Shown here in pieces: positions 9,252 through 44,357 of a DNA stretch of 64,000 nt; position 1 is the first letter of the stretch; every line of letters starts with the position of its first letter. Source of the DNA: an uncultured Candidatus Rokubacteria bacterium. Its GTDB lineage: Bacteria; Methylomirabilota; Methylomirabilia; Rokubacteriales; DASRDR01. Position numbers and translations under genes: made by a program. The stretch covers positions 1-64,000 of the forward strand of contig CAVVOZ010000025.1 in the NCBI GenBank assembly GCA_963749975.1. The letters are read 5' to 3'. The notes under the pieces are model-generated. The model ran no database searches. It was not told where the DNA came from and was given only the letters and a program-made list of their open reading frames with translations.

Positions 9252-11191
9252 GTGCGTCCAGAGAAAGCTGACGTGTTCAGCGGGAGTCAGTCCCGCCGGG
9301 GTAAGAGCCAGAGCCCCGTAACGCGGATGGCAGCGTGGAGGGGAACCGAGACGCTGAAGCCCATCGACCAAGCCCTCGGAAGGAGGGTGAGTGAGTCCCC
9401 GGGCCGTAACGAAAGTGAACGCAGAGGTGGCCCAGAAAGACTACAGCCCCGGAGGCCGAGCCCCATGGTTGAGAGGCGAAGGCCGCATGGCCCGTCGCAG
9501 CTGGCCGACGCGGCGGGACACTCCGGCGGGGTGAGAGCGACGGCACGGTGACGAGGACACGTCGAGCGACTGGAGAAGCCCTCCTCGCCCCACCGCGAAA
9601 GCGGCGGAGCCATGTCCAAGCTATAACCAGTGTCCCTGGGAAGTGGGCGGACGGCGAGAGGGTGGCGGACGGGTTCGCAGTAGCGGGGAAGCGGGGTAAT
9701 GCCCGTGGAGCGAAGGGGCCCGACTGGTCGGCACGTCCTCCGACAACATGGGAGGCAGGGGCGCCATGACAGCGGCGCCCATCAGTCTGCAAGACCTGAG
9801 GCGGAGGATCTACGTCAAGGCGAAGGCCGAGAAGCACTGGCGGTTCTGGGGCCTGTACGTCCATGTGGGCAAGCTGGAGACTCTGCGCGCGGCCTATGCG
9901 ATGGCCAAAGAGAACAACGGCGCCCCGGGCATCGATGGGGTGACGTTCGAGGCGATCGAGGACGCGGGCGTCGAAGGGTTTCTGGTGCAGCTCCGGGACG
10001 AACTGGTCACACGCACCTATCGGCCACTGCGGAACCGGCGCGTCGAGATTCCGAAGGGCGAGGGCAAGGTCCGCGTCCTGGGGATTCCGGCAATTCGGGA
10101 CCGGGTGGTCCAAGGGGCGCTCAAACTCATCGTGGAACCGATCTTCGAGGCGGACTTTCACGACGGGTCGTATGGGTATCGACCGAAGCGGACAGCCGCG
10201 CAGGCGGTCGACCGGGTGGCCGAGGCGATCGTGCGGAACAAGACGCGGGTGATCGATCTGGATTTGGCGGCCTTCTTCGACAGCGTGCGGCACGACATGC
10301 TGCTGGCGAAGGTGGCCCGGCGGGTCCAGGACGTCGAAATCCTGCACGTGTTGAAGCTGATCCTGAAAGCCTCCGGCAAGCGAGGAGTGCCTCAGGGCGG
10401 GGTGATTTCGCCCCTTCTCAGCAACGTGTACCTCACCGAGGTGGACGCGATGCTGGAGCGGGCGAAGGCCGTGGCACGGACCGGCGCACATGGGTACGTG
10501 GAGTACGCGCGCTGGGCCGACGACCTGGTGGTCCTCGTGAACAACGATCACCGGCAAGACTGGCTGGTGGAGGCGATACCCCGGCGACTCCGAGAAGAGT
10601 TCGCCAAGCTCGACCTGCAAGTGAACGAGGGGAAGAGTCGGATCGTGGACCTGAGTCGGGGGGAGAGCTTCGGATTCTTGGGCTTTGACTTCCGGCGCGT
10701 CCGCTCGCTGCGGGGGCGCTGGCGGCCGCAGTACATGCCGCAGCTGGCGAAGCGAACGGCGGTGCTGCGGAAGCTCAAGGCGGTGTTCCGGCGCTACGTC
10801 TCATGCTCGGTGGCGCGGGTGATCGCGGAGATCAATCCGATCCTCCGAGGGTGGGCCAACTACTTCCGGATCGGGCACGCGAGTCGGTGCTTTGGCTTCG
10901 TGCGCTGGTGGGTCGAGAAGCGGGTGCGGCGCCACATGATGCGGGCGAGGAATCGACGGGGCTTCGGCTGGACGAGGTGGAGTACGGCCTGGCTCTACGC
11001 CACGCTCGGGCTCTATGCGAACTACCGAGTGCGGTATGTGCCCCGGCCGGACAGTGCTCCCAGCCGATAGGTCGCATAACCCATGACGCGAAGCGATCAG
11101 GAAAGCCCGGTGCCGGAAATCGGCACGCCGGGTTTGATGCGGCGGGGGCTGGAAACGGGCCGACAGGTACCGCGCCAGTCCTCGACCCTAC
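9252..11191 (+). mobile_element. bacterial group II intron (about 1.94 kb) with the intron-encoded protein in domain IV
   Basis: The 5' end is GTGCG at 9252. The RT ORF lies at 9766-11070. A domain V-like hairpin, aAGCccggtgccggaaatcggcacgccggGttt, is at about 11103-11140. A D6-like hairpin has a bulged A at -7. The 3' end is …ccctAC. Exon 1 and exon 2 (at 12725) join in frame as FELVIN|LKTAK. Confidence 0.8.
9766..11070 (+). CDS. group II intron reverse transcriptase/maturase (no En domain evident)
   Basis: RT motifs are present: GIPAIRDRVVQ, YGYRPKRTAAQA, FFDSVRHDML, PQGGVISPLLSNVYL and YARWADDLVVL (the YADD box). A maturase X region follows (RGWANYFRIGHAS). Confidence 0.9.
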   Translation: MTAAPISLQDLRRRIYVKAKAEKHWRFWGLYVHVGKLETLRAAYAMAKENNGAPGIDGVTFEAIEDAGVEGFLVQLRDELVTRTYRPLRNRRVEIPKGEGKVRVLGIPAIRDRVVQGALKLIVEPIFEADFHDGSYGYRPKRTAAQAVDRVAEAIVRNKTRVIDLDLAAFFDSVRHDMLLAKVARRVQDVEILHVLKLILKASGKRGVPQGGVISPLLSNVYLTEVDAMLERAKAVARTGAHGYVEYARWADDLVVLVNNDHRQDWLVEAIPRRLREEFAKLDLQVNEGKSRIVDLSRGESFGFLGFDFRRVRSLRGRWRPQYMPQLAKRTAVLRKLKAVFRRYVSCSVARVIAEINPILRGWANYFRIGHASRCFGFVRWWVEKRVRRHMMRARNRRGFGWTRWSTAWLYATLGLYANYRVRYVPRPDSAPSR

Positions 11192-12724
11192 TGATATGGA
11201 AGGACCGGCGTCAAGCGGTGGCGTGAGGTCCGGACTTCTGGTCCGGGTGTCCAGTGTGTGGGACACAGTCCCGAGGGGGGCGGCGCCGAGACGATGAGGC
11301 GGCTTCGACGACGAATCACCCTGATATGCGCGGGTTGCCCCGAAGGGCCGAGCCGCATGACCGTGGTTCGTCGGGAGCTGCCTCCGTCTCAGGGAGCGCG
11401 AGTCGCCGGAGAGGGCGTCGCAGAGGTTGAGTCGAGGGCTCTCCAATCGTGCCTGCATCGTCCTGGCGCCGCCCGTCCTCGGGAAGCTCATGCAACTCTC
11501 AGTGGGGGAACGCGGGCCATTGCCTACGCCGCGACTCCCTGGGGGTCGACCCGGGTCATCACCGCCCAGAGAAAGCCGAGCAGTTCCCGGGCGACCGCGA
11601 CGACCGCGATGGGCGCCCGTTTGCCATGCCCGACGAGGTGCCGGTAGCGCCGATGGAGTCGCTGCTGGGCTTTCCAGGCGTGGGCCACGATCTCTCGGGG
11701 CTGGTGCTGGATGCGGAGGGCAATGGCGCGACCGAGGCGGGGACCGTGCCGATAGTGCCAGGCCGCTTCGACGAGGATCCGCCGCACGTGGGCGTTCCCA
11801 GCCTTGGTGATCCGGCCCTGGCGGTGGGTGTCGCCCGAGGAGTGCTCACTCGGCACCAGCCCCACGTAGGCCATGAGCTCGCGGGGCGTGCGGAACCGCC
11901 GGAAGTCCACGAGCTCGGCGAGGAGAATCATCGCGCCGAGCGTGTCGATGCCGCGGAAGCACCGCAGCCAGCCGACCGGCTCGCGGTACGGGGCGCGCTC
12001 GGCGAGGGCCTCGATCTCCCGGTCGAGCTCGGCCAGGCGCACTTGGGCCTGCTCGACGGCGAACAGCGTGGCGTCGAAGGTGCGCTGCAGCTCGGACAGG
12101 TCGAACCGCTGCGCCCGGAGCCACGTCCAGTGGGGCTGTCGCCAATGGGTGCCGGTGCGATAGACCCGACCATGCCGGAAGAGGAACTTGACGAGCCGAT
12201 GGCGCCAGCGCACGACATCCTCGCGGATGTCGTCCCGGCAGCGCAGGAGGTCCCGGACCGCTTCCTCGGCCTCGTTCGGCACATGGATCGGGGTGAGCTC
12301 GCCGGCGCGATAGAGCCGGACCAGCTTGGCTGCGTCGCGGCGATCCGTCTTGATCCGCTGCCCAGGGCGTCGCGGCGTCAGGGCTGGGGCGATCACATCG
12401 CACGGCACGCCGACGGCCGTGAGCTGCCGGTGCAGGTCGTAGCCGGACACGCCGGCCTCGTAGCAGACGCGGACCGGGCCCTCGCGCATGAGGCGCTCGA
12501 CGAGCCGGCGGAGGAGCCGCGGCTCGTTCGGGATCTGCCGCAGCTCCGGCTCGCGTTCCCCTGGCCGCAGGATCCCCGCGGTGATCGTCCGCTTGCTGTC
12601 ATCGAGGGCCACGTAGGTAGTATCCTTCTCCATGACCGGCCTCCTTTCGCCTGTGGCTCTGTTCTTCCCCCAAGGGGAACAACCCACGTATACGCGATAG
12701 GTAGGCCGGTCCTTCCATATGGTC
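11192..12724 (-). mobile_element. IS110-family (IS1111-like) insertion sequence, about 1.53 kb, abutting the intron 3' end
   Basis: A 16-bp perfect inverted repeat, ATATGGAAGGACCGGC, lies at 11194-11209 and as the reverse complement at 12705-12720. A DEDD transposase is encoded inside. The element sits between intron nt 11191 and exon-2 nt 12725. Confidence 0.7.
11524..12633 (-). CDS. IS110-family DEDD transposase
   Basis: The N-terminus reads MEKDTTYVALDDSKRTI (DEDD_Tnp_IS110 motif). The C-terminus has the transposase_20 region (…RFRTPRELMAYVGLVPSEHSSGDTHRQGRITKAGNAHVRRILVEAAW…). Confidence 0.85.
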   Translation of the reverse strand: MEKDTTYVALDDSKRTITAGILRPGEREPELRQIPNEPRLLRRLVERLMREGPVRVCYEAGVSGYDLHRQLTAVGVPCDVIAPALTPRRPGQRIKTDRRDAAKLVRLYRAGELTPIHVPNEAEEAVRDLLRCRDDIREDVVRWRHRLVKFLFRHGRVYRTGTHWRQPHWTWLRAQRFDLSELQRTFDATLFAVEQAQVRLAELDREIEALAERAPYREPVGWLRCFRGIDTLGAMILLAELVDFRRFRTPRELMAYVGLVPSEHSSGDTHRQGRITKAGNAHVRRILVEAAWHYRHGPRLGRAIALRIQHQPREIVAHAWKAQQRLHRRYRHLVGHGKRAPIAVVAVARELLGFLWAVMTRVDPQGVAA

Positions 12725-12786
12725 TCAAGACCGCGAAGACGCTCGGCCTCACCATCCCGCCCGTCGGTGTTGGCGCGGGCGGATGA
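12725..12786 (+). pseudogene. 3' exon of the ABC substrate-binding protein gene (…LKTAKTLGLTIPP-SVLARADEVIQ*), with a 1-nt frameshift
   Basis: It continues exon 1 in frame. The C-terminal motif matches the paralogous fragment at 15468..15884 (…[23 protein letters not shown]). Confidence 0.5.
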
Positions 12787-12827
12787 GGTGATCCAGTGAT
12801 CGGGCCGCTCATCCGCTGTCGTCTGGG

Positions 12828-13292
12828 GTGGACGCTGGTGGCGAGGACGACCGCGTGCGCCTGGTGATGGTCGGAGGCACTCGGAACGTCTGGGTCTGGC
12901 TCGAAGCGGAGACGGCGGAGGAGATGGTAGCCTTGCAGGCGTGTGCCGCCCGGGCAGAGTGGACAAACGGACGCGGGGCGGAGGCCATCGCAAGGCTCCG
13001 TGCCCTGGCGGAGCGATTAGGTTACCCGGTCAGGGACCCGAATCACCAGGTACGCCCGGTTCCGCCGTGTCTGGTCATCGTACGGCGTGGCGAGGGTGCC
13101 CTCTACGAGCGACTGACCACGATCGCGCGGGACAACGTCACGGTGGTCTGGGACCGACGCCAGAGCCAACGCCGGAGTGCGGATCGGCCGGCCGCGGCCG
13201 AGCGTCGACGGCAGGACCGGCGGCAGTCGCCGCCGCCCACGTGGGCCACGCTGGGCTTCCTCCTGGTGCAGTTCGAGGATGCGTCCCCATGA
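12828..13292 (+). CDS. hypothetical protein with an Arg-rich DRRxxxRR…ERR repeat tail
   Basis: …LVIVRRGEGALYERLTTIARDNVTVVWDRRQSQRRSADRPAAAERRRQDRRQSPPPTWATLGFLLVQ. It is a paralogue of 13437..13925. Confidence 0.5.
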   Translation: MDAGGEDDRVRLVMVGGTRNVWVWLEAETAEEMVALQACAARAEWTNGRGAEAIARLRALAERLGYPVRDPNHQVRPVPPCLVIVRRGEGALYERLTTIARDNVTVVWDRRQSQRRSADRPAAAERRRQDRRQSPPPTWATLGFLLVQFEDASP

Positions 13293-23077: not shown

Positions 23078-24394
23078 TCAGCCTCGCGTGATGCGGGCGC
23101 CGAGGGCCCTCAAGCGCTCGTCGATCCGCTCGTAGCCGCGGTCGATCTGGCGCGTGTTGCGGATGAGGGAGGTCCCGCGCGCGCAGAGAGCGGCGGCCAG
23201 GAGCGCCATGCCCGCGCGGATGTCGGGCGACACCATCGTCGCTCCGTGGAGCCGGCTCGGCCCGGCCACCACCGCCCGGTGCGGGTCACACAGGACGACC
23301 CGCGCTCCCATGTCGATCAGCCGATCCACGAAGAACAGGCGGCTCTCGAAGAGCTTCTCGTGGATGAGCACGGTGCCCGCGCACTGGGTGGCCAGGACGA
23401 GCGCCATGGGTGTGAGGTCGGCGGGGAAGCCCGGCCAGGGGGCGTCGTCGACGGTGGGGATGGCGCCGCCGAGGTCGTCGGACACCGCCAGCCGCTGGCC
23501 GCCCGGTACCACGAGGACCGTGCCCTCCAGCTGCGTCTCCAGGCCGAGCCGTGCGAAGACGAGCCGGATCATCCGCAGGTGCTCGGGCGCCACGTCGAGG
23601 ACGCGCAGCTCGCCGCCCGTCATGGCGGCCAGCGCGACGAACGAGCCGATCTCGATGTGGTCGGGCCCGATCCGGTGGGTGGCGGGCGCGAGCGCCTCCA
23701 CGCCCTCGATCTCGAGGGCGTTCGTCCCGATGCCCCGGATCTTCGCGCCCATCGCGTTCAGCGCGTGGCAGAGGCCCTGGACGTGAGGCTCGCAGGCCGC
23801 GTTGAGAAGCCGCGTTCTCCCGCGCGCGAGCACGGCGGCCATCACCGCGTTCTCGGTGGCGGTCACGCTCGCCTCGTCCAGGAACACCTCGGCGCCCTTG
23901 AAGCGCCCGGGCAGTGTCAGGCGGTAGACGTTGTCACCCAGCTCGATCTCGGCGCCGAGCTGGCGGAGCGCGAGGACGTGGGTATCGATGCGCCGCCGGC
24001 CGATCTGGTCGCCGCCGGGGCGGGGGAGCACCGCCTCGCCCCGGCGCGCCAGGAGCGGCGCGGCGAGCAGAAAGGACCCGCGAATGCGCGACGCGAGGGC
24101 CGGGTCCGGCGCGCCGCTCGCGAGCCCGGAGGCGTCGATCCGGACCGTCCGCTCTCCCACCAGCGCGATGCCTGCCCCCAGACCGCGCACCGCCTCCAGC
24201 AGGGTCTCCACGTCGCCGATCTGGGGGAGGTTGTCGAGGACGACCGGTCCTGACACGAGCAGCGACGCCGCGATCACGGGGAGGGCCTCGTTCTTGTTGC
24301 CGGCCGGCCGGAGCGCGCCCTGGATGGGACGCCCGCCCTCGACGGTGAACTGATCGCCGGGCAGCGGCTCGACGAAGAGTGCCACGGATCCCAT
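23078..24394 (-). CDS. murA: UDP-N-acetylglucosamine 1-carboxyvinyltransferase
   Basis: [18 protein letters not shown]… and the EPT-family fold run the full length. It ends …[16 protein letters not shown]. Confidence 0.9.
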
Positions 24395-24697
24395 GCTACC
24401 CGGAGAACCCGCCCGGACAGGTCAACAACCTTGCGGAACTCCTCAGCGCGTCTTCTCGCGTGTCTCTCGGGACCCGCGGACCTCGTGGCGGCTGTCCTCC
24501 TGCACCGGCGTGAGCGCGGCACAGCCTGTGTTGAGCGCACGAGCGGTGTTGGGCGGGGTGGCGGACCCTGAAGCCCGTCTGGTGCCCGGGGCCGCCTTCC
24601 TGTAGGGTCGGGCGAGGGGACTCCCCGCCACGGCCGCGCGGGATGGGCGGGGCCCGACGGATCACGGGCGAGATCATCGAGTGATGATCGGTTCGAG

Positions 24698-25048
24698 GTG
24701 ACGATGAGACCGGCAGGACGGTACCGGTTCACGCTCTTCTGGGCCTCGGTGCTGGTCGGTCTTGGCGTTGGTGTCATGGCGATGGGTGTCGTCTGCGCGG
24801 GCCTGCTCTTGCTCCTGCCCGATCGGATTCCGGTCCCGTATCCGTGGCCACGCCTCCTGGCGGCGGCCGTCGCGGTGGTCGGAGGCCTGCTCGTGGGTGC
24901 GCCGCTGATCATGATCGGTCAGCTGGTGCAGGTCTTCCTCGACCAGCGCCGGCTCCTGGGCCGCATTCACCACCGGCTCCGTCGCTGGGAGGACGAGCGG
25001 GAGTCGGAGCGGACCCACCCCATGCGCGGCCCCGTCCGGCCGCCGTGA
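24698..25048 (+). CDS. hypothetical membrane protein (3 TM)
   Basis: Hydrophobic helices FTLFWASVLVGLGVGVMAMGVVCAGLLLLL and AAAVAVVGGLLVGAPLIMIG. Confidence 0.5.
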   Translation: MTMRPAGRYRFTLFWASVLVGLGVGVMAMGVVCAGLLLLLPDRIPVPYPWPRLLAAAVAVVGGLLVGAPLIMIGQLVQVFLDQRRLLGRIHHRLRRWEDERESERTHPMRGPVRPP

Positions 25049-25363
25049 CTCCTGGCGCGGTCGATCGCACCGGGCCAGGGGGGATCGCGCCCGTGCCGCG
25101 GGGTCGCCCGGGGACCACTCGGTTATCGTGGTCGGCGGTCCCGATCAGACCCTCCCGGGCTTGCCTTCGGGGTGTCCGCGACCGACCCCGGGCGTCAGGG
25201 GCAGCTTCCGGCTGAGGTGGTCCCGGGGAAGGGCCCCCTCGAGGAGCCTCGTGGTCGCCGAAGGTGCTGCCCGGTGGAGCCCGATTCCTGCCTTCCAGGC
25301 TAGGACAGGTGTCCGGGGCTTCCGTGCTAGGCTATCCCCCATGATTCCGCACGGTTCGGCGCC

Positions 25364-27892
25364 GTGGTCTCTCTCCGGGGGTTCCCGGGGCTGACGATGG
25401 CGAGCCCCGGCGCGGCTCCGGCGAAGGGCAAGCCGCGTGAGGGTGGAGCCACCGGCTCCCTCCGGCGCGCATTCATCGGCGCTGCCCTCGCGACTTCCAT
25501 CCCGTTCCTGCTCCTCATCGCCTACCTGATCTGGGGACAGATCAGCCGCGAGCACAGCCGGGTCGAGCGCGAAGCGTTCGCCCAGGCCAGCCTCCTCAGC
25601 GCCCAGGTGGAGAAGCACTTCGGGGCGCGCATCGAGGCGCTCACCGGAGCCGCGAGTCTACTCGGGGCGGGCGGGGCGAGTCCCTCGGCCGGCGAGGCCC
25701 AGGGACGGCGGCTCCGGCAGGCGTTCCCGGACGTCGACCGCGCCGTCCTGATCGACGAGCTGGGGGTGGCCGCGGCCTCGGTTCCGGCCCTCGCCGAGGG
25801 CAAGCGTCTCGCGGTCGGTGACCAGGAGTGGTTCAAGCGGGCGGCGACGTCGACGGATCCGTTCGTCGGCGCCCCCTGGCGAGCCGGTCCGGAGATCCTG
25901 GTGGGGATCTACGCGCCGGTGCGGACCACCGAGGGACAGCTCCGGGGCGTCCTCGCGCTCGATCTCCTGCTCAAGCGCGTCCAGGATCTCCTGGCCCAGG
26001 CGAAGCTCTCCCCGGGGACCGCGGCCGCGCTCGTGACGGACCGGGGTGTCGTCGTCGCGCGCCAGCCGGCGCTCTTCCTGATGGCCAACGTCTCCGGGCT
26101 TGCCGGGTACGGTGACCTCCTGTCGCGGGGCGGCACGGGTGAGGCCGTCTTCGAGGACGGGGAGTCGCGCATTGCCGGCGCGGTCCGGATCCGTCCCCAG
26201 GGCTGGACTCTCGTCGTCGGGGTTCCGTCGGCCGAGGTCACGCGCGAGACCCGGAGCCAGCTCCTCCTCGTCGGCGGCGGGGGCCTGGCGCTCACGGCGC
26301 TGGCGATCCTTGCCGGGGTTCGGCTGGCTGGCCGCCAGGCCGAAGGGTTCGGGCGGCTTCGTCAGGCGATGGGGCGGCTCGAGACCGGGGACTTGCCGGC
26401 CACGCTGCCGGTCACCGTGGGCGGCGAGGCGGGCGCTCTCACGGATAGCTTCAACCGGATGCTGAGCTGGCTCCGTGGAAAGCTCCGGGAATACGAGGTC
26501 GTGACTCAGCTGGACGACGCAGCCGGTCGCGTGGTGACCGGGGACCGCTCGGGGGACGCGGCATTTGTCGGCCTCCTTCGCCGGGTGGTCGGGGGCGTCG
26601 GGGCGGACGTCGGAGTTCTCGTCCTGCCGGACGAGTCCGGCCTGGTGGCGCGGGCCGCGGTGGGCTTTCACGGGACCCAGGTCGAGGGCAGCCGTCTCCG
26701 GAGAGGCCAGGGACTGGCGGGAGCCGTCATGTCCGCGCGCGAGACCATGGTCGTGGCCGACGTGGAGGCGGACTACCGGGTCGAGGAGCCGTATCTCAAG
26801 GACGGAAGCATCCGCTCCATGGCCGCCTTCCCCCTCCTGGCCGGCGACGAGCTGCTGGGAGTGGTCGCGGTCGGGTATCGCACGGCCCATGCGTTTCCCC
26901 CGGACGAGGTGGCGCGGCTCGAGGCGATCGTGCGCCGGACGGCCCAGGCCATCGAGCGCGCGCAGGCCCTCGACTCGGTGCAGCGCAGCACCCAGGGTCT
27001 CGAGGCGCAGATCGCCCAGCAGATGGAGGCGCTCCAGAAGGCCGCGGTCGAACAGGCGGAGGCCAACCGCCAGACGCAGGAGGCGCGAAAGCAGGCGCGG
27101 GAGATGGAGCAGCGCATGAAGCTCCAGGCCGCGCAGGCGCCGCAGGTCAAGGAGGTCATCGTCGAGCGCGAGGTCGTGCGCCAGGACCCGGCGAGCGAGC
27201 AGGCCGCGCGATTCCGCGGGGAGATGCAGAAGACGGTCAGCGAGGAGCTGCGCGCCCCGCTCACCGCGCTCCTCGACCTTCCGCGGCTCCTGGTCGACGG
27301 GCTCCAGAAGCCGCTCGGCGACACCGAGCGGGGCCAGCTCGAGATCCTGCAGGAGCGCGGGCAGGAGATCCTGGAGCTGATCGAGGGCCTCACGGCGCTG
27401 AGCGGGCTCCAGGCCGGCGGGCTCAAGCTCACCAAGGCTTCGACGGATGTGCCCACGCTCGTCCAGCGGGTGGTCCGCACGCTCCAGCCCCGCGCCGCGG
27501 CGAAGGGGAACCGGATCGAGACGGACATCAAGCCCGGGGTGGCGCCCGTCGTCACGGACTCGCGCCGGGTCGAGCAGGTCCTCGGGAATCTGATCCTGTC
27601 GGCCGTCAAGTACACCGAGGTCGGGGAGATCCGCGTGACCTGCTACCAGCGCGACCGCGAGGTCGTCATGACGGTGGCCGACGACGGCGTCGGCTTCACC
27701 CAGGAGGAGCAGGGCCGGATCTTCCGGCCGTTCTGTCCGGTCGGCCCGCGGGACGGCCGGACGCTCCCCGGCACGGGCCTCCTCCTGACGGTGGCCGAGC
27801 GGCTCGTCATCGCGCTCGGTGGCAAGATCAAGATGGAGAGCGAGCCGGACCGCGGCTCGTGGGTCACCGTCACGCTGCCGGTGCAGGGATGA
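25364..27892 (+). CDS. sensor histidine-kinase-like protein: two TM helices flank a periplasmic Cache-like region, then HAMP, GAF, DHp and a catalytic ATPase domain. The H-box His is replaced by Glu.
   Basis: GAF (…ETMVVADVEADYRVEEPYLKDGSIRSMAAFPLLAGDELLGVVAVGY…). The DHp helix reads TVSEELRAPLTALLDL where the consensus is SHELRTPL. The N box (LGNLILSAVKYT), G1 (DDGVGF), F (FRPF) and G2 (GTGLLL) are all present. Confidence 0.85.
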   Translation: MVSLRGFPGLTMASPGAAPAKGKPREGGATGSLRRAFIGAALATSIPFLLLIAYLIWGQISREHSRVEREAFAQASLLSAQVEKHFGARIEALTGAASLLGAGGASPSAGEAQGRRLRQAFPDVDRAVLIDELGVAAASVPALAEGKRLAVGDQEWFKRAATSTDPFVGAPWRAGPEILVGIYAPVRTTEGQLRGVLALDLLLKRVQDLLAQAKLSPGTAAALVTDRGVVVARQPALFLMANVSGLAGYGDLLSRGGTGEAVFEDGESRIAGAVRIRPQGWTLVVGVPSAEVTRETRSQLLLVGGGGLALTALAILAGVRLAGRQAEGFGRLRQAMGRLETGDLPATLPVTVGGEAGALTDSFNRMLSWLRGKLREYEVVTQLDDAAGRVVTGDRSGDAAFVGLLRRVVGGVGADVGVLVLPDESGLVARAAVGFHGTQVEGSRLRRGQGLAGAVMSARETMVVADVEADYRVEEPYLKDGSIRSMAAFPLLAGDELLGVVAVGYRTAHAFPPDEVARLEAIVRRTAQAIERAQALDSVQRSTQGLEAQIAQQMEALQKAAVEQAEANRQTQEARKQAREMEQRMKLQAAQAPQVKEVIVEREVVRQDPASEQAARFRGEMQKTVSEELRAPLTALLDLPRLLVDGLQKPLGDTERGQLEILQERGQEILELIEGLTALSGLQAGGLKLTKASTDVPTLVQRVVRTLQPRAAAKGNRIETDIKPGVAPVVTDSRRVEQVLGNLILSAVKYTEVGEIRVTCYQRDREVVMTVADDGVGFTQEEQGRIFRPFCPVGPRDGRTLPGTGLLLTVAERLVIALGGKIKMESEPDRGSWVTVTLPVQG

Positions 27893-27896
27893 GGGC

Positions 27897-28919
27897 ATGA
27901 AGCGACCGTCTCGTCGCCCTCATGAGAGCATGAGCCCGTCCACGCGCAGTCCTTCCACCCTCGGGCACGTGCTGATCGTCGACGACGACCTCCTGGTCCG
28001 GGAGACGATGCGGGACTACATCGATCACCTCGGCTACGCGGTGCGCGACGTGGGATCCGCGGAGGAGGCGCTCAGGGAGATCGCCAAGGAGGCGCCGGAC
28101 CTGGTGCTGCTCGACGTCCGGATGCCGAGGATCACCGGGATCGACCTGTGCCGGCAGCTCAAGAGCGACCCGATGACGCACCTGATTCCCGTGGTTCTCC
28201 TGACCGCCGAGCGCGAGCTGGACTCGCGGGTGGCGGGGCTCGCGGCGGGCGCGGACGACTACTTCACGAAGCCCGTCCACCCGCGGGAGCTGGACGCGCG
28301 TCTCCGATCGCTCATCCGCCTGAAGCGCGTCCTCGAGGAGCTGGAGGAAGCCGAGAGCCTGATCACGAGCCTCGCGCTCACGATCGAGGCGCGGGATCCC
28401 TACACGGCCGGCCACTGCGTGCGGCTGGCGGCCTGGGCGATGGCCTTCGGCGAGCGTCTCGGGCTCAGCGAGGAGGAGCAGAAGGCGCTGCGCCTGGGAG
28501 GGTTCCTGCACGATCTCGGCAAGATCGCGGTGCCCGACGGCGTCCTCCTCAAGGCCGGCCCGCTCAGCGCGGAAGAGCGGCGGCTCATGGAGGAGCATCC
28601 GGCCGCGGGCGACCGGCTCGTCGTGCCCATGCGGACGCTCGGCCTCGTGCGCCCCATCATCCGGCACCACCACGAGCGGTGGGATGGGCATGGGTACCCG
28701 GACCGGCTGGGCGGGGAGGAGGTGCCGCTCCTCGCGCGTCTCATGGCGATCGTCGACGTCTACGACGCGCTCTGCACGCAGCGCCCGTACAAGGGTCCGT
28801 TCGGCGAGGAGGAAGCGCTCAAGAGCCTCCGCGAGGGAGCCCGGACCGGGCAGTTCGACCCGGAGATGGTCCGCGTGTTCCTGGAGCTCCGGCAGGCCTC
28901 GACGGACCTCCGCCGCTGA
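27897..28919 (+). CDS. response regulator with an HD-GYP phosphodiesterase output domain (RpfG-like)
   Basis: REC domain (LIVDDDLLVRE…LVLLDVRMP…ADDYFTKP). HD-GYP domain (…YTAGHCVRLA…GGFLHDLGKIAVPD…HHERWDGHGYPDRL…). Confidence 0.85.
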   Translation: MKRPSRRPHESMSPSTRSPSTLGHVLIVDDDLLVRETMRDYIDHLGYAVRDVGSAEEALREIAKEAPDLVLLDVRMPRITGIDLCRQLKSDPMTHLIPVVLLTAERELDSRVAGLAAGADDYFTKPVHPRELDARLRSLIRLKRVLEELEEAESLITSLALTIEARDPYTAGHCVRLAAWAMAFGERLGLSEEEQKALRLGGFLHDLGKIAVPDGVLLKAGPLSAEERRLMEEHPAAGDRLVVPMRTLGLVRPIIRHHHERWDGHGYPDRLGGEEVPLLARLMAIVDVYDALCTQRPYKGPFGEEEALKSLREGARTGQFDPEMVRVFLELRQASTDLRR

Positions 28920-28935
28920 GCCTCCGTCCGCGCTG

Positions 28936-29286
28936 ATGGCCGACTGCGTCTTCTGCGAGATCGTCGCCGGCCGGAACCCCGCGACGATCGAGTACCAGGA
29001 CGACGAGATCCTCGCGTTCCACGACATCTACCCGAAGGCGCCGGTCCACCTCCTGATCATCCCGAAGCGCCACATCGAGTCCGTGATGGCGCTCTCTCCG
29101 GAGGACGCGCCGCTCGTCGGCCGCATGGTCCTGGCCGCGAAGCGGATCGGAGAGGCGCGAGGCCTGGCCGAGCGCGGCTACCGGCTCGCCATCCACTCCG
29201 GACCCGAGGGAGGTCAGGTCGTGTACCATCTCCACCTTCACTTCCAGGCCGGTCGCCGCGACGAGCGGAAGGTCGAGCGGCGATGA
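28936..29286 (+). CDS. HIT-family (histidine triad) protein
   Basis: CVFCEIVAG…APVHLLIIPKRHI…VVYHLHLHF (HxHxHxx motif). Confidence 0.85.
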   Translation: MADCVFCEIVAGRNPATIEYQDDEILAFHDIYPKAPVHLLIIPKRHIESVMALSPEDAPLVGRMVLAAKRIGEARGLAERGYRLAIHSGPEGGQVVYHLHLHFQAGRRDERKVERR

Positions 29287-29371
29287 CGCCACAGGCCGCC
29301 GCAGGCCCTTCACGCGGCAGGCCGTCGCGTCAGGCGCCCAATCAGCTCGAGCGCGGAGCGAGGGAAGCGCC

Positions 29372-30652
29372 GTGAGCCCACAGGCCGAAGGCCGTCCGAT
29401 CAGTTCCCGGCCCGAGCGGGTCCGCCTCGCGAACGGCCTCACGGCGGTGCTCCAGCCCCACGATGCGGCCGAGGTCGCGGCGGTGCAGCTCTGGGTCCGC
29501 GCCGGAGCGCGCGACGAGGGCCCGGACGAGGCGGGGCTCTCTCACTTCATCGAGCACCTGCTCTTCAAGGGGACACCCACGCGGGGACCCGGCGTGATCG
29601 ACCAGACGATCTCCGGCCTCGGGGGCGAGATGAACGCCGCGACCTCCCAGGACTGGACCTACTTTCACGTCGTCCTGCCCGCCGGGCGCCTCGACACCGC
29701 GCTGGACATCCTGGCCGACGCGGCGCAGCACGCCGCGTTCGACCCGGTCGAGGTCGAGCGCGAGCGCCACGTGGTGCTGGAGGAGATCCGGCGCGCCGAG
29801 GACACGCCCAGCGCCGCCCTCTGGCGGGTGCTGGCCCGCGGGCACTTCGGCGAGCACGCGTACGGTCGGCCGGTCCTCGGCTCCGCCGAGTCCATCGCGG
29901 GAGTGCCCCGCGAGAAGATCGTCGACTACTATCGCCGCTCCTACGTGCCGAACAACGCGACGGTGGTGGTGGCGGGCAGCATGCCGGCGGAGCGGAGCCT
30001 CGACGCCGTGCGTGAGGCGTTCGGGAGCTGGGCCCCGGGCCCGCTTCCGGAGCGGCCGCGGCGGGCTCCCGCGCCGCCGCGCGCCCCGCGGCGGATCCAG
30101 GAATCGAAGACGCTTCACCAGACGTACCTCGGGTTCGCGTGGGCCGGCGTCATTCCGCCCGATCCGGACGTCTATGCCCTCGACCTCGTGACGACCGTGC
30201 TGGGCCAGGGACGGTCGTCGCGGCTGGTGCAGGCGCTCCGGGAGCGGCTCGGGCTCGTGTCGGGGATCGGGAGCAGCTTCTACCTCCAGCACGACGCGGG
30301 GATGATCGCGATCACCGCCCGGACGACGACGGCGCGCTACGCGGAGATCGAGGCGGCGGTCCTGGCGGAGGTGGGGCGCCTGTCCGAGGAGCTCGTCACG
30401 GAGGCGGAGTTCACGCGGGCGATGACGTCGGTGGAGGCGGAGCACGCGTTCAGCGGAGAGACGGCGGAAGGCGCCGCCTACACGCTCGGCACGGCGGACA
30501 CCGTGTGGACGCTCGAGTTCGAGCTGGGCTACGTCGACGCCGTCCGGCGGGTGACGCGCGAGGCCATGCGCGAGGCCGCCCGGCGTCACCTTCGGCCCGA
30601 TCGCTTCACGGGCGCCGTCATCGGCGCCGCGGCTGCCGGGGGAGGCGAGTGA
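29372..30652 (+). CDS. M16-family zinc peptidase (active subunit, HxxEH)
   Basis: GLSHFIEHLLFKGT… zinc-binding motif. Domain architecture runs the full length. Confidence 0.85.
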   Translation: MSPQAEGRPISSRPERVRLANGLTAVLQPHDAAEVAAVQLWVRAGARDEGPDEAGLSHFIEHLLFKGTPTRGPGVIDQTISGLGGEMNAATSQDWTYFHVVLPAGRLDTALDILADAAQHAAFDPVEVERERHVVLEEIRRAEDTPSAALWRVLARGHFGEHAYGRPVLGSAESIAGVPREKIVDYYRRSYVPNNATVVVAGSMPAERSLDAVREAFGSWAPGPLPERPRRAPAPPRAPRRIQESKTLHQTYLGFAWAGVIPPDPDVYALDLVTTVLGQGRSSRLVQALRERLGLVSGIGSSFYLQHDAGMIAITARTTTARYAEIEAAVLAEVGRLSEELVTEAEFTRAMTSVEAEHAFSGETAEGAAYTLGTADTVWTLEFELGYVDAVRRVTREAMREAARRHLRPDRFTGAVIGAAAAGGGE

Positions 30653-31968
30653 GCGCCGACCAGGGACACCCGAAGCCCGGCGCGCCGCCGCGGGAGCCGG
30701 GGCTCCGCCCGGAGTCGAGCCGTCCGGCCGCGGCCGACCTCGGTCCGGTCACGCGTCTCGTCCTTCCCAACGGCCTGACGGTGCTGGTGCGCGAGAACCG
30801 GGGCGCCCCGGTCGTCGCCGTGACCCTCCTGTCCCGGCGCGGTGCGGCGGACGAGGCGCCGGAGCTGAACGGGGTGACGGCCCTCCTCGGGCGCGTGCTC
30901 CTCAAGGGGACGCGGGCGCGAACCGCCGTCGAGGTCGCGAGCGCCGCCGAGGACGCCGGGGGCGGGCATCGAGAGCGGGGCCGATCAGGAGTACGGCGAG
31001 CTGCGGACCTGGGGTCTCGCGCGACACTGGCCCCGCCTCCTCGCGCTGCTCCACGAGGTGGCCACCGAGCCGCGCCTCGCGGACGACGAGATCGAGCGGG
31101 AGCGCGGGGTGCTCCTGGCCCAGATCCGTGGTCTCGAGGACCAGCCCGCCCAGGTCGCCAACCGCGTCCTCGCGCGGGCGCTCTTCGGCCCGCGGGGGTA
31201 CGGGTTGCCGACGAGCGGAGAGGAGGCGACGGTCGCGCGGATCACGCGGGCGAGCCTGCTCGAGCGGTTCGGGGAGGCATACACGGCCGACCGGCTCGTG
31301 CTCGCCGTGTCCGGGGCGGTGACCGCCGACGACGTGCTCGGCGAGGTGGGACGGCTCTTCGAAGGGCTCCGGCGCGGCGGGCCGGTGTCCGCGCCGCCGC
31401 CGCCGCCGGAGCGGCCCGTGCGCCTCCGTGAGCACGAGACGTCGCCGACCCAGCAGGCCCACGTCTTGCTCGGCTATCTCGCGCCTCCCGTCGCCGCGCC
31501 GGACCACGTCGCCCTCAAGGTCGCGAACGGCGTCCTGGGCGGCGGGATGTCGAGCCGGCTCTTCCGGACCCTCCGGGACGAGGAGGGGCTCGCCTACTCC
31601 GTGGGGTCTGCCTACCCCACCCGGCGGGGCGCCGGCCGCGTCGTGCTTCACATCGGGACGGCGCCGGAGAACGTGGCGGCGGCCGAGGCCGGCCTCCGGC
31701 GAGAGGTCGATCGCCTGTCCGGCGAGCCGGTGCCCGAGGACGAGCTCGCGCGCACGAAGGCCTACCTCTCCGGATCCTTCGTGCTGGACCGCCGGACGAA
31801 CGGCCGCCAGAGCTTCTATCTGGCGTTCTACGAGGTGATGGGGGTGGGCGCCGAGTACGTGCTGCGCTACCCGAGCCTCCTCGAGGCGGTCGGCGCGACC
31901 GACGTGCTGCGCTCGCGCGCGCCGCCATCTCGTCGAGCCGGCGGCGGTGGTGGTCGGCCCGGCTTGAG
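30648..31968 (+). CDS. M16-family peptidase-like protein (non-catalytic partner; no HxxEH); needs about 2 frame corrections (around 31000 and 31920)
   Basis: …VTRLVLPNGLTVLVRENRGAPVVAV…ALLGRVLLKGT…, then in ORF 31058..: …ERERGVLLAQIRGLEDQP…GLAYSVGS…. The C-terminus is restored in the +1 frame as …ARRHLVEPAAVVVGPA*. Confidence 0.7.
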
Positions 31969-31982
31969 AGCCGGCAGGCGCC

Positions 31983-32727
31983 GTGCTGCCGCTCAAGGAC
32001 AACGTTCCGACCCGCTCCTTCCCGGCCGTCTCGGTCGCCCTGATCGCCGTCAACGTCGTCATCTATCTCTACGAGTTCTTTCTGTGGTTCGACCCGGCGA
32101 CCGCCGGCCGGCCGTCGCTGGGAGCCCAGCTCTACGGGCAGTTCGTGGTCGAGTTCGGCCTGATCCCGTGCCGGTTCGGGGACATCTGCCCGCCGGGGCT
32201 CGACACGGTGCTGGCGGGGGCCCCCGCGCCGGCGCTGACCATCTTCACGTCGATGTTCGTCCACGGGGGGCTGCTTCACGTCGGCGGGAACATGCTCTAC
32301 CTCTGGATCTTCGGCAAGAACGTCGAGGACTCGATGGGGCACGGGCGATTTCTCGTCTTCTACCTCGTGTGCGGGCTGGCGGCGGCGGCCGCGCAGTACG
32401 CTCCAGGATCCCGCGTCGGCCATTCCGATGGTGGGCGCGAGCGGCGCGGTCTCGGGGACCCTGGGCGCGTACCTCCTGCTGCACCCGCGCGCGCGGATCT
32501 GGACCCTGGTGATCTTCGGCTACTTCGCGCGGATGATCCCGGTGCCCGCCATGGTCGTGCTCGGGTTCTGGGTGGTCCTGCAGTTCGTGAACAGCGTCTT
32601 CACGTTCGCCCGGGGTGGCGCCGAGGGGGTCGCGTTCCTGGCCCACCTGGGCGGCTTCGTCGCCGGTCTCGCGCTCATCGGCCTCTTCCGGCGCCCGCGG
32701 ATCCGCCGCCGGCGACGATGGGCCTGA
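31983..32727 (+). CDS. rhomboid-family intramembrane serine protease (frame change near 32410)
   Basis: …FVHGGLLHVGGNMLYLWIFG… and …GASGAVSGTLGAYLL…AHLGGFVAGL (GxSG and His catalytic dyad). Confidence 0.75.
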
Positions 32728-32862
32728 CGTCGGGCGGCCCGCGGACGGGTGCCGCAATCCATCGGCCGTGGCGGCCGATTGGCGGCCGATCGGCGCCGCG
32801 GTCAGCTTCCGATCAGCCGGAGGACTGCCGCGGCCTATAATCGGGCGGAGGCAAGGACACGG

Positions 32863-37820: not shown

Positions 37821-40607
<2,787 letters not shown>

Positions 40608-40761
40608 GGGTTCCCCTCTCCACCGCCTGAGCCTCGGCCGGGCGGCTGCCCGGGCCGGATTCGCCGCATCAACATGTAGGTGTCGGGACCGCGAAAGCGC
40701 CCACCCCTGGTATTTTTTCCTTGGACGGGCCCCGGGGCCGTGCTATCAGTCTTTGACAGTC

Positions 40762-43700
40762 ATGCGGCTCCAGGGAGTGACGCTGTTCGGCTTCAAGTCC
40801 TTCGCGGATCGCACCGAGGTGCGCATCCTTCCCGGGATCACCGCCATCGTCGGCCCCAACGGCTGCGGCAAATCGAACATCTCGGACGCGCTCCGGTGGG
40901 CGCTCGGCGAGCAGAGCCCCAAGGCCCTCCGCGGCCACCGGATGGAGGACGTGATCTTCCACGGGTCGGCCTCGCGGCGGCCGCTCGGGCTGTCCGAGGT
41001 CCTGCTCACGTTCTCCAACGACGGCGAGCTGAGCGTGCCGTGGAGCGAGGTGGGGGTCGGACGGCGCCTCTACCGGGACGGCGAGTCCGAGTACCTCCTC
41101 AACAAGACGGTCTGCCGGCTGAAGGACATCCACGATCTCTTCCTGGGCACGGGCGTGAACCCGAAGGCCTACGCGCTGATGGAGCAGGAGCGTCTGGCCC
41201 ACATCCTCACCGCGAAGCCGCTCGACCGGCGGGTCTTCGTGGAGGAGGCGGCGGGCATCACCCGGTACAAGCTCCAGCGGGCCGAGACGCTCGGCAAGCT
41301 GGAGGCGACGCGCCAGAATCTCCTCCGCGTGCGGGACGTGATGGACGAGGTCAAGCGGCAGCTCGGCTCCCTCGAGCGCCAGGCGAAGAAGGCGCAGCAG
41401 CACAAGGCGCTCCAGGCCGAGCGGCGGACGATCGAGGTCGCCCTCCTGGCGGCCGAGCATGCCACGCTGACCGGGGAGGAGGAGCGCCTCGGCGGGGAAG
41501 AGGCGGCCGAGCGAGCTGCGGGTCGAGGTGGGCCAGACTCGCGTGGCCGCGCTGGGGGCGGCGCTCGAGCTGGCACGCGCCGACGTGATGACGGCCGAGC
41601 AGCGGGCGGCCGAGTCGCGACACACGCTCCAGCGCGCGGAGCTCGAGCTCGAGGGGTGCGTGGGACGGGCCGAGCAGCTCCGCCTGGTCGAGCGCGATCT
41701 GGGTGCCGAGGTCGACCGGCTCGGCGAGGAGGCGGAGGCCCTCTCGCTCAGGCTGAAGGCGCTCGCCGAGGAGCGGCGCGCCAAGGGCACGCTCCTCGAG
41801 GCCATCCGCCGCGACTTCGCGGCCCTCCAGGCGCGGGCGCAGGCCGAAGAGGCGGCGCTCGACGAGCTGCGCGTGCGCCTCCGGGGGGCCCGGGAGGCGG
41901 CGGAGACGCTCCGCCACGATCAGGTGGGTCTCGCGGGACACCGGACCGAGCTCGGGCAGATCCTGGGCGCGCTGGACGAGCGGCAGGAGCACCTTCATCG
42001 CCGGCTGGATCGCCTCAAGGCGGAGCGCGGCGAGGCCGATGCCGAGCGGGCCCGCATCGAGGCCGCCCGGGGAGTCGCCAGCGCCCGCGTGAGCGCCGCC
42101 GCGGCTCGCGTCGCCGCGCTCGAGGTCGAGCTCCGGGATCTGGCGACGGATGCGGGGGCAGCGGCGGCGGAGCGGACTGCGGCCACGGAGGCGGCGGAGA
42201 CGTGCCGGGTGACCCTTGCGTCTCGGCGGTCGAGCCGGGCCGCGCTGGAGGAGCTCGAGGCCCAGCGGGCCGGCTACGCCCGGGGCGTGCAGGCGGTCTT
42301 CGCGGCCGCCGGGGAGGCGCGCCTCCGAGGGGTCGTGGGTACGGTCGCCGACCTCCTCGACGTGCCGCGGGAGCTCGAGCGCGCCGTCGAGGCGGCGCTG
42401 GGCGAGCGGCTCCAGTGGGTGGTGATGGAGACGTTCGAGGCCGCCAAGACGGCCCTCGGCTACCTCGGCCGCTCCGGCGGCGGGCAGGCGACGTTCCTGC
42501 CGCTCGACTGGCTGAACGGCAGTCCGGAGGCCCACGTCGGCACGGACCCGGGCGTGGTGGGGCTGGCGGAGGCGCTGGTCGCGTCGGGCCATCCGCGCCT
42601 GGTCGCCAACCTGCTCGGCTCGGTCGTCGTGGTGCGGGATCTCGGCGCGGCGGAGCGCCTGTACGCCCAGAACGGTCACGGCACGAGCTTCGTGACCGTC
42701 GGCGGCGAGCTGCTGAGCCCTCCCGGCGCCCTCGGCGGCGGGCGGGCCGCGGGCGGCGGCGACGCCTCGCTCCTCGCCCGGAAGCGCGCGATCCGCGACC
42801 TCGGCGCGGAGATCCTGCGCCTGGAGCTCGAGGTGGAGGAGGCCCAGGAGCGCGGGCGCCGGGCGGAGGCGCGCGTCGCCGCGCTCGACGACACCCAGCG
42901 CGCGCGCGCCACCGCGCGGGAGGCCGCCGAGGCCGAGCGGCTGACGGCGTCGAAGGATCTCGAGCAGGTCGTGCGCGAGGCCGAGCGGGTCGGCCTGGCG
43001 GCGGAGGCGCTCCGCACGGAGGTCGCCCAGCTCCGCGCGGACGCCGCCGGCGTCGAGACCGAGGCGCGGACCCAGCGCCAGGGGCTCGCCGAGGTCGAGG
43101 CGAGGGCGGCGCGCGTGGCGTCCGAGATCGCGGAGCTCCTGGGACGCATCGAGATCGACTCGCAGGACGAGGCTCGGCGCTCGCAGGCGTTCCTGGACGC
43201 CCAGGTGGAGCTGGCGGCCCTGGCGGGGCGCATCGACACGATCGAGTCCGACCTCGTGCGGAACCAGGCCGACGAGGGCGAGGCAGAGGAGCGGATCCAG
43301 GCTGGGCGAGGAGCGCCTCGCGACGCTCCGGGGCCGCCTGGAGGAGGGCTCGGCGGAGCGCCGCCGGCTCGACGCCCGCGCCGAGGCGGTCCGGGCCGAG
43401 CGGGACCAGATCGAGGCCGTCGCTCGGGTCACCGCCGAGACCGTGCGGGAGCGCACGGAAGCGGTCACGCGTGCCGCCGACGACCTCCGCGGCAGCGAGG
43501 CCGAGCTCCACCGGGCGACGCGGGCGGTCCAGGAGCACGCCATCCGGCTGGCCGAGCTCCGGGTGAGGCGCCAGGATCTGGAGGCCGACGTGCGGCGCCG
43601 CTTCGAGGTGGAGCCGGACGGGCTACGGCTGGCCCACGATCCGGAGCGCGACCTCGAAGAGGCGCGGGCGCGGCTCGAGGCGGTCGCCCAGCGGATCACC

Positions 43701-44306
43701 GCCCTCGAGCCGGTCAACCTCATCGCGGACGAGGAGTACCGGGAGCTCGACGAGCGTCTCGCGTTTCTCCGGACGCAGCACGACGACCTGTCCTCGTCGA
43801 TGCGCGACCTGGAGAAGGCGCTTCGCGGGATGACGCGGACCGCGCAGGAGCGGTTCCTCGAGGCGTTCGAGGCCATCAACCGGAACTTCCAGGACCTCTT
43901 CACGCGGCTCTTCGAGGGCGGGCGTGCGGAGCTGCGCCTGGTCGAGGCGCCGGAGGGAGGCGACCCGCTCGAGACCGGCATCGAGATGGTCGCTCAGCCA
44001 CGGGGGAAGCGGCTCCAGGCGATCTCGCTCCTGTCCGGAGGCGAGAAGGCGCTGACCGGCCTCGCGCTGCTCTTCGCGATCTTCTACTACCGGCCGAGTC
44101 CCTTCTGTCTCCTCGACGAGGTGGACGCGCCGCTCGACGACGCGAACATCCACCGGTTCACGCGGGTCCTCCGGGAGCTGTCGAGCCAGACCCAGTTCAT
44201 CGTGATCACCCACAACCGGAAGACCATGGAGGCGGCCGACGTGCTGTACGGCGTCACCATGGAGGAGCCGGGTCTCTCCCGGATCGTCTCCGTCAACCTC
44301 GCCTGA
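40762..44306 (+). CDS. smc: chromosome segregation protein SMC (needs about 2 frame corrections, near 41500 and 43300)
   Basis: The N-terminus reads FKSFADRTEV…IVGPNGCGKSNISDALRWALGEQ. Long coiled coils and a hinge (…GVVGTVADLLDVPRELERAVEAALGERLQWVVMET…) follow. The C-terminus has LSGGEKALTGLALLFAI…LDEVDAPLDDANI. Confidence 0.85.
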
Positions 44307-44357
44307 CCCGACGGCGGGCCGGTGCCGGCCGGCCGTGTCCGTCGTGGCCGCTCAGGG

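Follow-up and report, generated by a model that had tools for sequence, protein, structure and literature searches.

A conserved histidine-kinase-like sensor with glutamate at the phospho-acceptor site, encoded beside a REC-HD-GYP regulator in Rokubacteria

The first 64,000 nucleotides of contig CAVVOZ010000025.1 (assembly GCA_963749975.1, an uncultured Candidatus Rokubacteria bacterium from soil), here called the window, encode a membrane sensor that resembles a histidine kinase and carries glutamate in place of the phospho-acceptor histidine. Judged by its sequence, the sensor is a pseudo-histidine kinase: it has the kinase fold, residues for one or more catalytic functions are lost, and the loss is conserved under selection. 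The following gene encodes a response regulator (RR) in which a receiver (REC) is fused to an HD-GYP domain. The reading favoured here, with moderate confidence, is that the sensor is a conserved dead pseudokinase which still docks this regulator and controls it without phosphotransfer. That the sensor is catalytically dead is well supported; its docking to the regulator and the control it would exert are what we infer. A first-pass annotation of the window had proposed a pseudokinase similar to DivL of Caulobacter crescentus. Further catalytic lesions, strong purifying selection acting on the kinase core and the constant pairing with the REC-HD-GYP gene all reinforce this proposal.

Lost catalytic residues and their conservation

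The sensor gene and the parts of it that concern catalysis are as follows.

25364..27892, plus strand: sensor pseudo-histidine-kinase gene, an open reading frame (ORF) of 842 residues from GTG with stop TGA at 27890-27892 (ORF list)
27188..27433, plus strand: DHp (HisKA-type) domain, residues about 609-690 (HisKA profile match; helical hairpin in the AlphaFold2, AF2, model)
27242..27244, plus strand: codon GAG of Glu627, at the phospho-acceptor His position (alignment to kinases in the PDB; family counts)
27254..27256, plus strand: codon GCC of Ala631, at the Thr/Asn of the phosphatase motif H-E/D-x-x-T/N, where the sensor reads E-E-L-R-A
27557..27886, plus strand: CA (HATPase_c) domain, residues 732-841 (Pfam, 77 bits; AF2 confidence, pLDDT, above 90 over most of the domain)
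27599..27601, plus strand: codon TCG of Ser746, which replaces the Mg2+-chelating Asn of the N box (PDB alignments, family counts)
27782..27784, plus strand: codon CTC of Leu807, which replaces the third Gly of the G2 box (PDB alignments, family counts)

The H box of the sensor reads V625-S-E627-E-L-R-A-P-L-T-A-L. When the protein is aligned by phmmer with PDB chains, E627 falls on the phospho-His of HK853, ShkA and others, and the flanking S, E, L, R, P and L are identical. The substitution reported by the first-pass annotation is thereby confirmed, and the same residue is found in 110 of 112 family members (51-97% identity), His in none. In the full-length sensor the HisKA profile (PF00512) matches residues 618-684 with 20.6 bits, below the cut-off of 26.9. 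The isolated DHp segment scores 27.1 bits against the gathering score of 26.9 and spans profile positions 2-66 of 66. An in-silico E627H exchange lifts the latter score from 27.1 to 33.7 bits, and A631T in addition lifts it to 38.7; the DHp is thus genuinely of the HisKA family, its score being held down chiefly by positions 627 and 631. The alignment places the H box nowhere else. The DHp contains no His at all and the whole protein only four (residues 64, 85, 436 and 509). A nearby alternative His, or an alternative H box, was ruled out for the family as well, where His occurs only sporadically at positions 648 (9/112) and 653 (16/112). The phospho-acceptor His of a HisKA sensor kinase (EC 2.7.13.3) is thus represented by Glu627, and the alignments show a protein that should be incapable of autophosphorylation on a DHp histidine.

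The remaining motifs of a HisKA kinase are affected unequally. In the phmmer alignments the N box reads NLILS746AVKYT against NLxxNAxKF/YT in the PDB kinases, and the G2 box G-T-G-L-L807-L against the canonical G-x-G-L-G-L. The missing Mg2+-chelating Asn is the residue that we take to be N347 in EnvZ and N380 in HK853. Intact in the CA domain are G1 (D773-D-G-V-G777), the F box (F787, F790), N742, K749 and Y750, and the ATP-lid is of normal length; across the family D773, G775, G777, F790, G803 and G805 are invariant or nearly so. The first-pass annotation had taken the N, G1, F and G2 boxes to be intact and the protein still to bind ATP. Its description fits G1 and F, but the N and G2 boxes are both degenerate, and with them goes the ground for the predicted ATP binding. 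It had also overlooked the loss of the phosphatase-motif Thr/Asn, the residue that in HisKA proteins activates the hydrolytic water while the His aids its positioning (PMC7005713). The alignments show a sensor without the canonical residues for either Mg-ATP catalysis or HisKA phosphatase activity, and catalysis with Mg-ATP is unlikely. The fold is retained. The AF2 model of residues 596-842 (pLDDT 84.8) has a normal DHp hairpin and a Bergerat-fold CA domain, and in Foldseek it matches best the HK853 chains complexed with RR468 and the DivL structure 4Q20, with TM-scores of 0.78-0.80.

The family was collected by a search of 5.8 billion proteins, and residues were counted by column over 112 sequences. 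The homologues fall into 111 clusters at 51-90% identity, after which the next match falls to 30%. All named clusters belong to Methylomirabilota/Rokubacteria except three partial proteins (P0060, P0110 and P0111; 56-88% identity) with Vicinamibacteria and Solirubrobacterales names, which are probably mis-binned. The counts in the four columns of interest are these.

Column 627 (His site): E 110, G 1, D 1, H 0
Column 631 (Thr/Asn of the phosphatase motif): A 76, V 23, G 11, T 2
Column 746 (N-box Asn): S 61, T 41, A 4, F 4, W 1, N 0
Column 807 (third Gly of G2): L 92, S 7, H 5, Q 3, M 2, G 0

The first-pass annotation had named His in the orthologues as the finding that would overturn it, and none of the relatives has it. 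An outlying branch, P0121, has kept the second N-box Asn and lost the first. A scan of GTDB species genomes gave 16 sensor loci, all in Methylomirabilota. The codon at site 627 is GAG in all 15 that cover the site, and neighbouring codons vary synonymously. GAG is two substitutions away from CAC or CAT, from which a sequencing error had been judged unlikely at the outset; the fixed codon bears this out.

The origin of the Glu state can be read from the phmmer matches of the DHp-CA region in an exhaustive search of 1.84 billion representative proteins, in which family fragments come first and ordinary kinases follow. His and the N-box Asn are both present in 287/287 of the nearest non-family kinase domains; the motif position is T in 261 of them and N in 13, and the third Gly of G2 is kept in 281. 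Nearest among the single-domain relatives are P0242 and P0248 (38-39% identity), in which the two motifs are MSHELRTPL and NLLSNA. Because these nearest domains keep both His and Asn, the Glu/Ser state is derived, specific to the family, and arose from a normal HisKA kinase.

The dead core is also the best conserved part of the protein. Over 95 full-length members the mean frequency of the major residue is 0.79 in DHp and CA, against 0.74 in the GAF domain and 0.68 in the sensor domain, and the H-box stretch (residues 622-646) is the most conserved of all, at 0.93. By the Nei-Gojobori method dN/dS of the DHp-CA region is 0.06-0.14 against five close relatives (loci L003-L006 and L016) and 0.32 against locus L007. 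The fold and the RR-docking helix of the sensor are under strong constraint. Taken together, the conservation data show a loss of His that is both ancient and selected.

Orthologues carry the public names 'signal transduction histidine kinase' or 'ATP-binding protein', and most members lack PF00512 in the precomputed Pfam list. Since most members fall short of the Pfam HisKA threshold, censuses based on HisKA and annotation pipelines overlook the DHp or apply one of these two names, and both such censuses and the kinase label misrepresent the family. In one census of representative proteomes His-less HisKA domains numbered 722 of 76,471 (0.9%) (PMC12632262).

Sensor modules, regulator and neighbouring genes

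The other modules of the sensor and the two genes that follow it are listed below.

25469..25537, plus strand: first transmembrane segment of the sensor, residues 36-58 (hydropathy window above 1.6)
25538..26257, plus strand: periplasmic double-Cache domain of the sensor, residues 59-298 (Pfam, AF2, Foldseek)
26258..26464, plus strand: second transmembrane segment, residues 299-320, and HAMP domain, residues 321-367, of the sensor (hydropathy; Pfam HAMP, 35 bits)
26573..26956, plus strand: cytoplasmic GAF domain of the sensor, residues 404-531 (Pfam GAF_2, 60.3 bits; GAF, 58.1 bits)
27140..27190, plus strand: Pro-flanked segment P593-QVKEVIVEREVVRQD-P609 of the sensor, between a Q/E/A-rich coiled coil and DHp helix 1
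27897..28919, plus strand: response regulator with REC (residues about 25-136) and HD-GYP (residues about 163-323) domains (Pfam Response_reg, 103 bits; HD_5, 134.6 bits)
28936..29286, plus strand: HIT (HinT-like) protein of 116 residues with the triad HLHLHFQ (residues 98-104) from 29227 (Pfam HIT, 79 bits)

The true start of the sensor gene is likely the ATG at 25397, which would give 831 residues, the length of most orthologues. The GC content at third codon positions of the ORF is 0.91, as for genuine genes in this window of 72% GC. The periplasmic domain of about 240 residues is bracketed by the two hydrophobic segments (36-58 and 299-320). Its dCache_1 match (residues 144-284, 41.9 bits) lies slightly below the gathering score of 45, and its AF2 model (pLDDT 94) matches double-Cache domains in Foldseek with TM-scores of about 0.8 to rpHK1S-Z16 (3lif) and to the ligand-binding domains of PctA/B/C. 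The Cache-like periplasmic domain of the first-pass annotation is thus upheld by the structural model, and the cytoplasmic GAF domain and the REC-HD-GYP regulator by Pfam matches, the latter with its residues intact.

Between these sensor modules and the DHp lies the Pro-flanked segment, which follows the pattern P593-QVKEVIV(EREVV)RxD-P609 in the family columns and is conserved apart from an indel of 5-6 residues. In the AF2 model residues 593-609 are non-helical and of low confidence (pLDDT 44-64), and they break the normally continuous signalling helix that leads to DHp helix 1. One metagenomic protein of 505 residues (P0112) is 94% identical to the sensor over dCache-HAMP, after which a rhodanese domain (PF00581) replaces GAF-DHp-CA; this reflects a chimeric or frameshifted assembly, or else a real swap of domains.

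The regulator gene starts 4 nt past the stop of the sensor gene. Its receiver contains D29/D30/D31, D73 (28113-28115), T103 and K125, and its HD and GYP motifs are encoded at 28509-28514 and 28692-28700. The acidic triplet, D73, T103, K125, the His/Asp ligands of HD-GYP and the GYP motif are kept in the window and in all 16 loci. The regulator thus combines a canonical phosphorylatable receiver with an apparently active phosphodiesterase. Its conservation exceeds that of the sensor (75% versus 56% identity, for instance), and its best NCBIfam match is the NosR family, far below the cut-off.

The HIT gene begins 16 nt after the regulator gene. Its product scores 92.6 bits against the NCBIfam purine nucleoside phosphoramidase (the HinT equivalog), below the cut-off of 206. 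In all 16 species loci, as far as the contigs reach, the pseudokinase gene is followed in turn by those for REC-HD-GYP, HIT, two M16 proteins, rhomboid and phosphoglucomutase, and the order from pseudokinase to phosphoglucomutase recurs in two metagenome contigs as well. In all relatives HIT, M16, M16, rhomboid, phosphoglucomutase, FtsJ, NAD kinase and RecN form a syntenic block on the same strand. Because this conserved block runs on through unrelated housekeeping genes, the adjacency of HIT carries no specific functional weight. The HIT gene noted in the first-pass annotation is indeed there, with its His triad, but its position reflects shared synteny, and a specific linkage of HIT to the pseudokinase is not supported.

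The only invariant neighbour of the pseudokinase is the REC-HD-GYP gene. Neither a second kinase core nor a second receiver was found in the window by tblastn with canonical histidine-kinase cores and REC or by Pfam on the large ORFs. Conserved upstream partners were ruled out, MurA and a predicted membrane protein of 116 residues being present in close relatives only. The latter is encoded at 24698-25048 on the plus strand, 350 nt upstream of the pseudokinase, and has no significant Pfam match; it is 70-94% identical in the closer relatives and absent from the loci at 55-79% identity. At L003, the closest relative (pseudokinase 97% identical), about 920 extra bases lie between MurA and the gene of this membrane protein. 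The insert (L003 4151-5305; compare window 24431-24666) encodes a stand-alone receiver on the minus strand at L003 4521-4901, which is not in the window. In another species (L002/L014) two REC-only genes lie directly upstream of the pseudokinase. The REC-only genes of L002/L014 and of L003 are each confined to a single relative. A scan of 24300-29500 for promoter and terminator consensus sequences gave nothing, which carries no information given the 72% GC of the genome and the uncharacterised promoter types of the phylum. About 12 kb upstream of the locus there is a small mobile-element patch (9748-12993), in which a group II intron reverse transcriptase/maturase (RVT_1 and GIIM; 9748-11070, plus strand) adjoins an IS110-family transposase (11524-12993, minus strand).

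Control without phosphotransfer and the alternatives

In the mechanism that we favour, the periplasmic dCache and the cytoplasmic GAF domains would sense ligands, and the docking surface of the DHp would bind the receiver of the co-encoded regulator. Binding, rather than phosphotransfer, would then tune the output of the cyclic di-GMP (c-di-GMP) phosphodiesterase, by allosteric activation, by inhibition or by sequestration at the membrane. The invariant Glu would present a fixed negative charge at the phospho-His position, facing the Asp/Mg2+ pocket of the receiver, and Glu627 may be the natural counterpart of the phosphotransfer-state mimic DesK H188E. The pseudokinase may also read or gate the receiver's phosphorylation state, as DivL does with DivK~P. 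Because the receiver retains all of its phosphorylation residues, the phosphoryl group of the regulator, if any, would have to come from another donor.

Several points weigh against this reading. The two observations that point to binding of the regulator are the adjacency of the genes and the conservation of the docking helix, and the adjacency has limited weight because it lies inside a larger conserved syntenic block. The fully canonical receiver implies that phosphorylation still matters and that another kinase or donor exists. The invariance of G1, the F box, K749, Y750 and D773 suggests that some nucleotide-dependent function may persist. The Pro-flanked, non-helical segment (residues 593-609) parts the sensor modules from the DHp, and because it interrupts the helix, the route of the signal to the DHp is hard to explain. 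Lastly, a carboxylate could in principle serve as the general base in a phosphatase reaction.

A more specific proposal, which is tentative and rather doubtful, is that the sensor side has given up His-to-Asp phosphotransfer while the receiver stays phosphorylatable. By mimicking phospho-His, the Glu would lock the DHp in a docking state like that of phosphotransfer, and the dCache/GAF signal would reach the phosphodiesterase purely through regulated contact between the proteins, or through binding that distinguishes RR from RR~P. If true, the family would supply the natural counterpart of DesK H188E and a second, mechanistically distinct paradigm beside DivL.

Among the alternatives to control without phosphotransfer, it is possible, though unlikely, that the sensor has lost its kinase activity and become a dedicated phosphatase of the REC-HD-GYP regulator, with another kinase or acetyl phosphate as the source of the phosphoryl group. 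In place of His, Glu627 together with Glu628 would serve as the water-positioning base. The N-box mutant EnvZ N347D is reportedly kinase-minus and phosphatase-plus, and with a canonical receiver RR~P probably exists. The HisKA His is not essential for phosphatase activity, in which it acts as a water-positioning base (PMC7005713; PMC12632262), and the strictness of the Glu (110/112), set against the drift among E, D, Q, V and Y at this site in PsmA of Streptomyces venezuelae (PMC12963549), suggests a chemical role. Against this, the key activating Thr/Asn is Ala, Val or Gly in 110/112 members; ADP binding stimulates the HisKA phosphatase (PMC7005713), while the N and G2 boxes of the sensor are degenerate; and the characterised His-less proteins DivL and PsmA lack phosphatase activity or the motif for it.

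It seems distinctly unlikely that the sensor is a modulator like RetS of Pseudomonas aeruginosa, its dead DHp heterodimerising with a real kinase encoded elsewhere, or inhibiting or activating that kinase in some other way, which in turn would phosphorylate the regulator. A canonical receiver does need a phosphodonor, structures of the RetS kinase region are among the sequence and fold matches, and DivL acts on the kinase CckA (PMC4211667). The extra stand-alone REC genes near the L002/L014 and L003 loci also hint at wider networks. But the window holds no second kinase core, the library of 1.84 billion proteins contains no His-bearing DHp-CA relative above about 39% identity, and the sole invariant neighbour is the regulator.

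We regard as very improbable an active phosphodonor of non-canonical chemistry, be it through an acyl phosphate on Glu627, autophosphorylation on Ser, Thr or Tyr, or direct transfer from ATP to Asp on the docked receiver. Plant phytochromes and subfamily-2 ethylene receptors do have degenerate kinase domains with Ser/Thr kinase activity, and the sensor family shows no variation in G1 (DDGxG), the F box, K749, Y750, N742 or the general-base Glu628, with an ATP-lid of normal length. The Mg2+-chelating Asn is nevertheless gone in nearly all members, G2 is degenerate, and DivL and PsmA have no autokinase activity; a Glu acyl-phosphate intermediate is not known to us from any domain of the histidine-kinase type.

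The probability of a sequencing or assembly artefact, or of a decaying kinase pseudogene, is negligible: frame breaks in the nearby M16, rhomboid and SMC genes do mark the assembly as not error-free, but those are indels whereas E627 is a two-base substitution, the ORF is intact, and the family counts, the fixed GAG codon, the peak of conservation at the H box and the low dN/dS against the five close relatives refute this explanation. The pseudokinase, regulator and HIT ORFs are all unbroken. Downstream, broken genes occupy 30650-32840 and 40402-44416. The second M16 peptidase is spread over all three frames (frame 1, 30697-30966; frame 2, 30959-31915; frame 3, 31917-31964). The rhomboid gene switches frame near 32340-32400, and SMC is split between ORF 40402-43566, which encodes its N-terminal domain, and ORF 41528-44416, which encodes its hinge. 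The pattern suggests indel errors from long-read metagenome assembly; pseudogenes are less likely.

Comparison with known systems

The concept of the pseudo-histidine kinase is established, and the sensor family itself is uncharacterised. A literature search for natural His-to-Glu kinases paired with HD-GYP regulators gave nothing beyond PsmA, DivL and the DesK mutant. Pseudo-histidine kinases are recognised and little characterised, DivL being essentially the only one studied mechanistically and PsmA a recent addition. The sensor family is a useful case, with an invariant acidic substitute, three more catalytic losses, a dead core that is the best conserved part of the protein, and a single, constant, enzymatic partner. 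With two proteins and one enzymatic read-out, the proposed control of a receiver by a His-to-Glu DHp, without phosphotransfer, lends itself to simple reconstitution. The c-di-GMP circuit of Rokubacteria at this locus should not be treated as an ordinary kinase-regulator pair.

In genetic arrangement the locus is comparable to RpfC/RpfG, in which RpfC, an active hybrid kinase, has the His, a REC and an HPt (histidine phosphotransfer) domain and RpfG is a REC-HD-GYP c-di-GMP phosphodiesterase. In both cases a membrane sensor of the kinase superfamily is encoded beside a REC-HD-GYP regulator with intact HD and GYP; unlike RpfC, the sensor has no phospho-acceptor His, HPt or REC. RetS (6DK7/6DK8) is, like the sensor, a kinase-like protein without a phosphorelay output of its own. 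RetS keeps its own His and exerts its effect by forming DHp heterodimers with the kinase GacS, whereas the sensor has lost the His and no partner kinase is evident for it.

The mutant H188E of DesK, the thermosensor kinase of Bacillus subtilis, carries the same exchange at the phospho-acceptor site. In a passage of PMC7005713 its complex with the DesR receiver is described as a proposed phosphotransfer-state conformation. The phosphomimetic effect that the first-pass annotation suggested for the Glu thus has an experimental precedent in this mutant. The DesK exchange is artificial, lies in a HisKA_3 protein and leaves an otherwise functional ATP site; the sensor has a natural exchange in a HisKA protein, accompanied by losses in the N box, G2 and the phosphatase motif.

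PsmA has Glu at the H-box site, degenerate ATP motifs, no D/ExxT/N motif and no autokinase activity (PMC12963549). The sensor resembles it in the Glu at the His site, in the degenerate ATP-binding motifs of the CA domain and in the loss of the phosphatase motif. The PsmA residue varies, and its E-to-H reversion is phenotype-free, in contrast to the near-invariant Glu of the sensor family. Moreover, PsmA is a hybrid, DivIVA-binding polarisome protein with a REC of its own, whereas the sensor is a membrane protein with a separate REC-HD-GYP partner.

DivL has neither kinase nor phosphatase activity; its binding of TNP-ATP is weaker than that of typical kinases by a factor of more than 19, and its RR docking face binds DivK~P (PMC4211667). 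Like DivL, the sensor has a DHp-CA fold of the HisKA type without a phosphorylatable His, and in both the loss is conserved and, in DivL, functional; the AF2 model of the sensor superimposes on 4Q20 with a TM-score of 0.80 at about 26% identity. The differences are equally clear. DivL has Tyr where the sensor has Glu, and DivL is a cytoplasmic, polar multi-PAS protein where the sensor is a dCache-HAMP-GAF membrane protein. DivL has as its partner DivK, a single-domain RR whose gene lies elsewhere, and as its output the kinase CckA; the partner gene of the sensor is adjacent. An orthologous relationship was ruled out by the Glu in place of Tyr, the architecture, the phylum Methylomirabilota and the low identity, and the two proteins are analogous, not orthologous. 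The features that are the sensor family's own are the invariant Glu and an operonic, enzymatic and canonical regulator.

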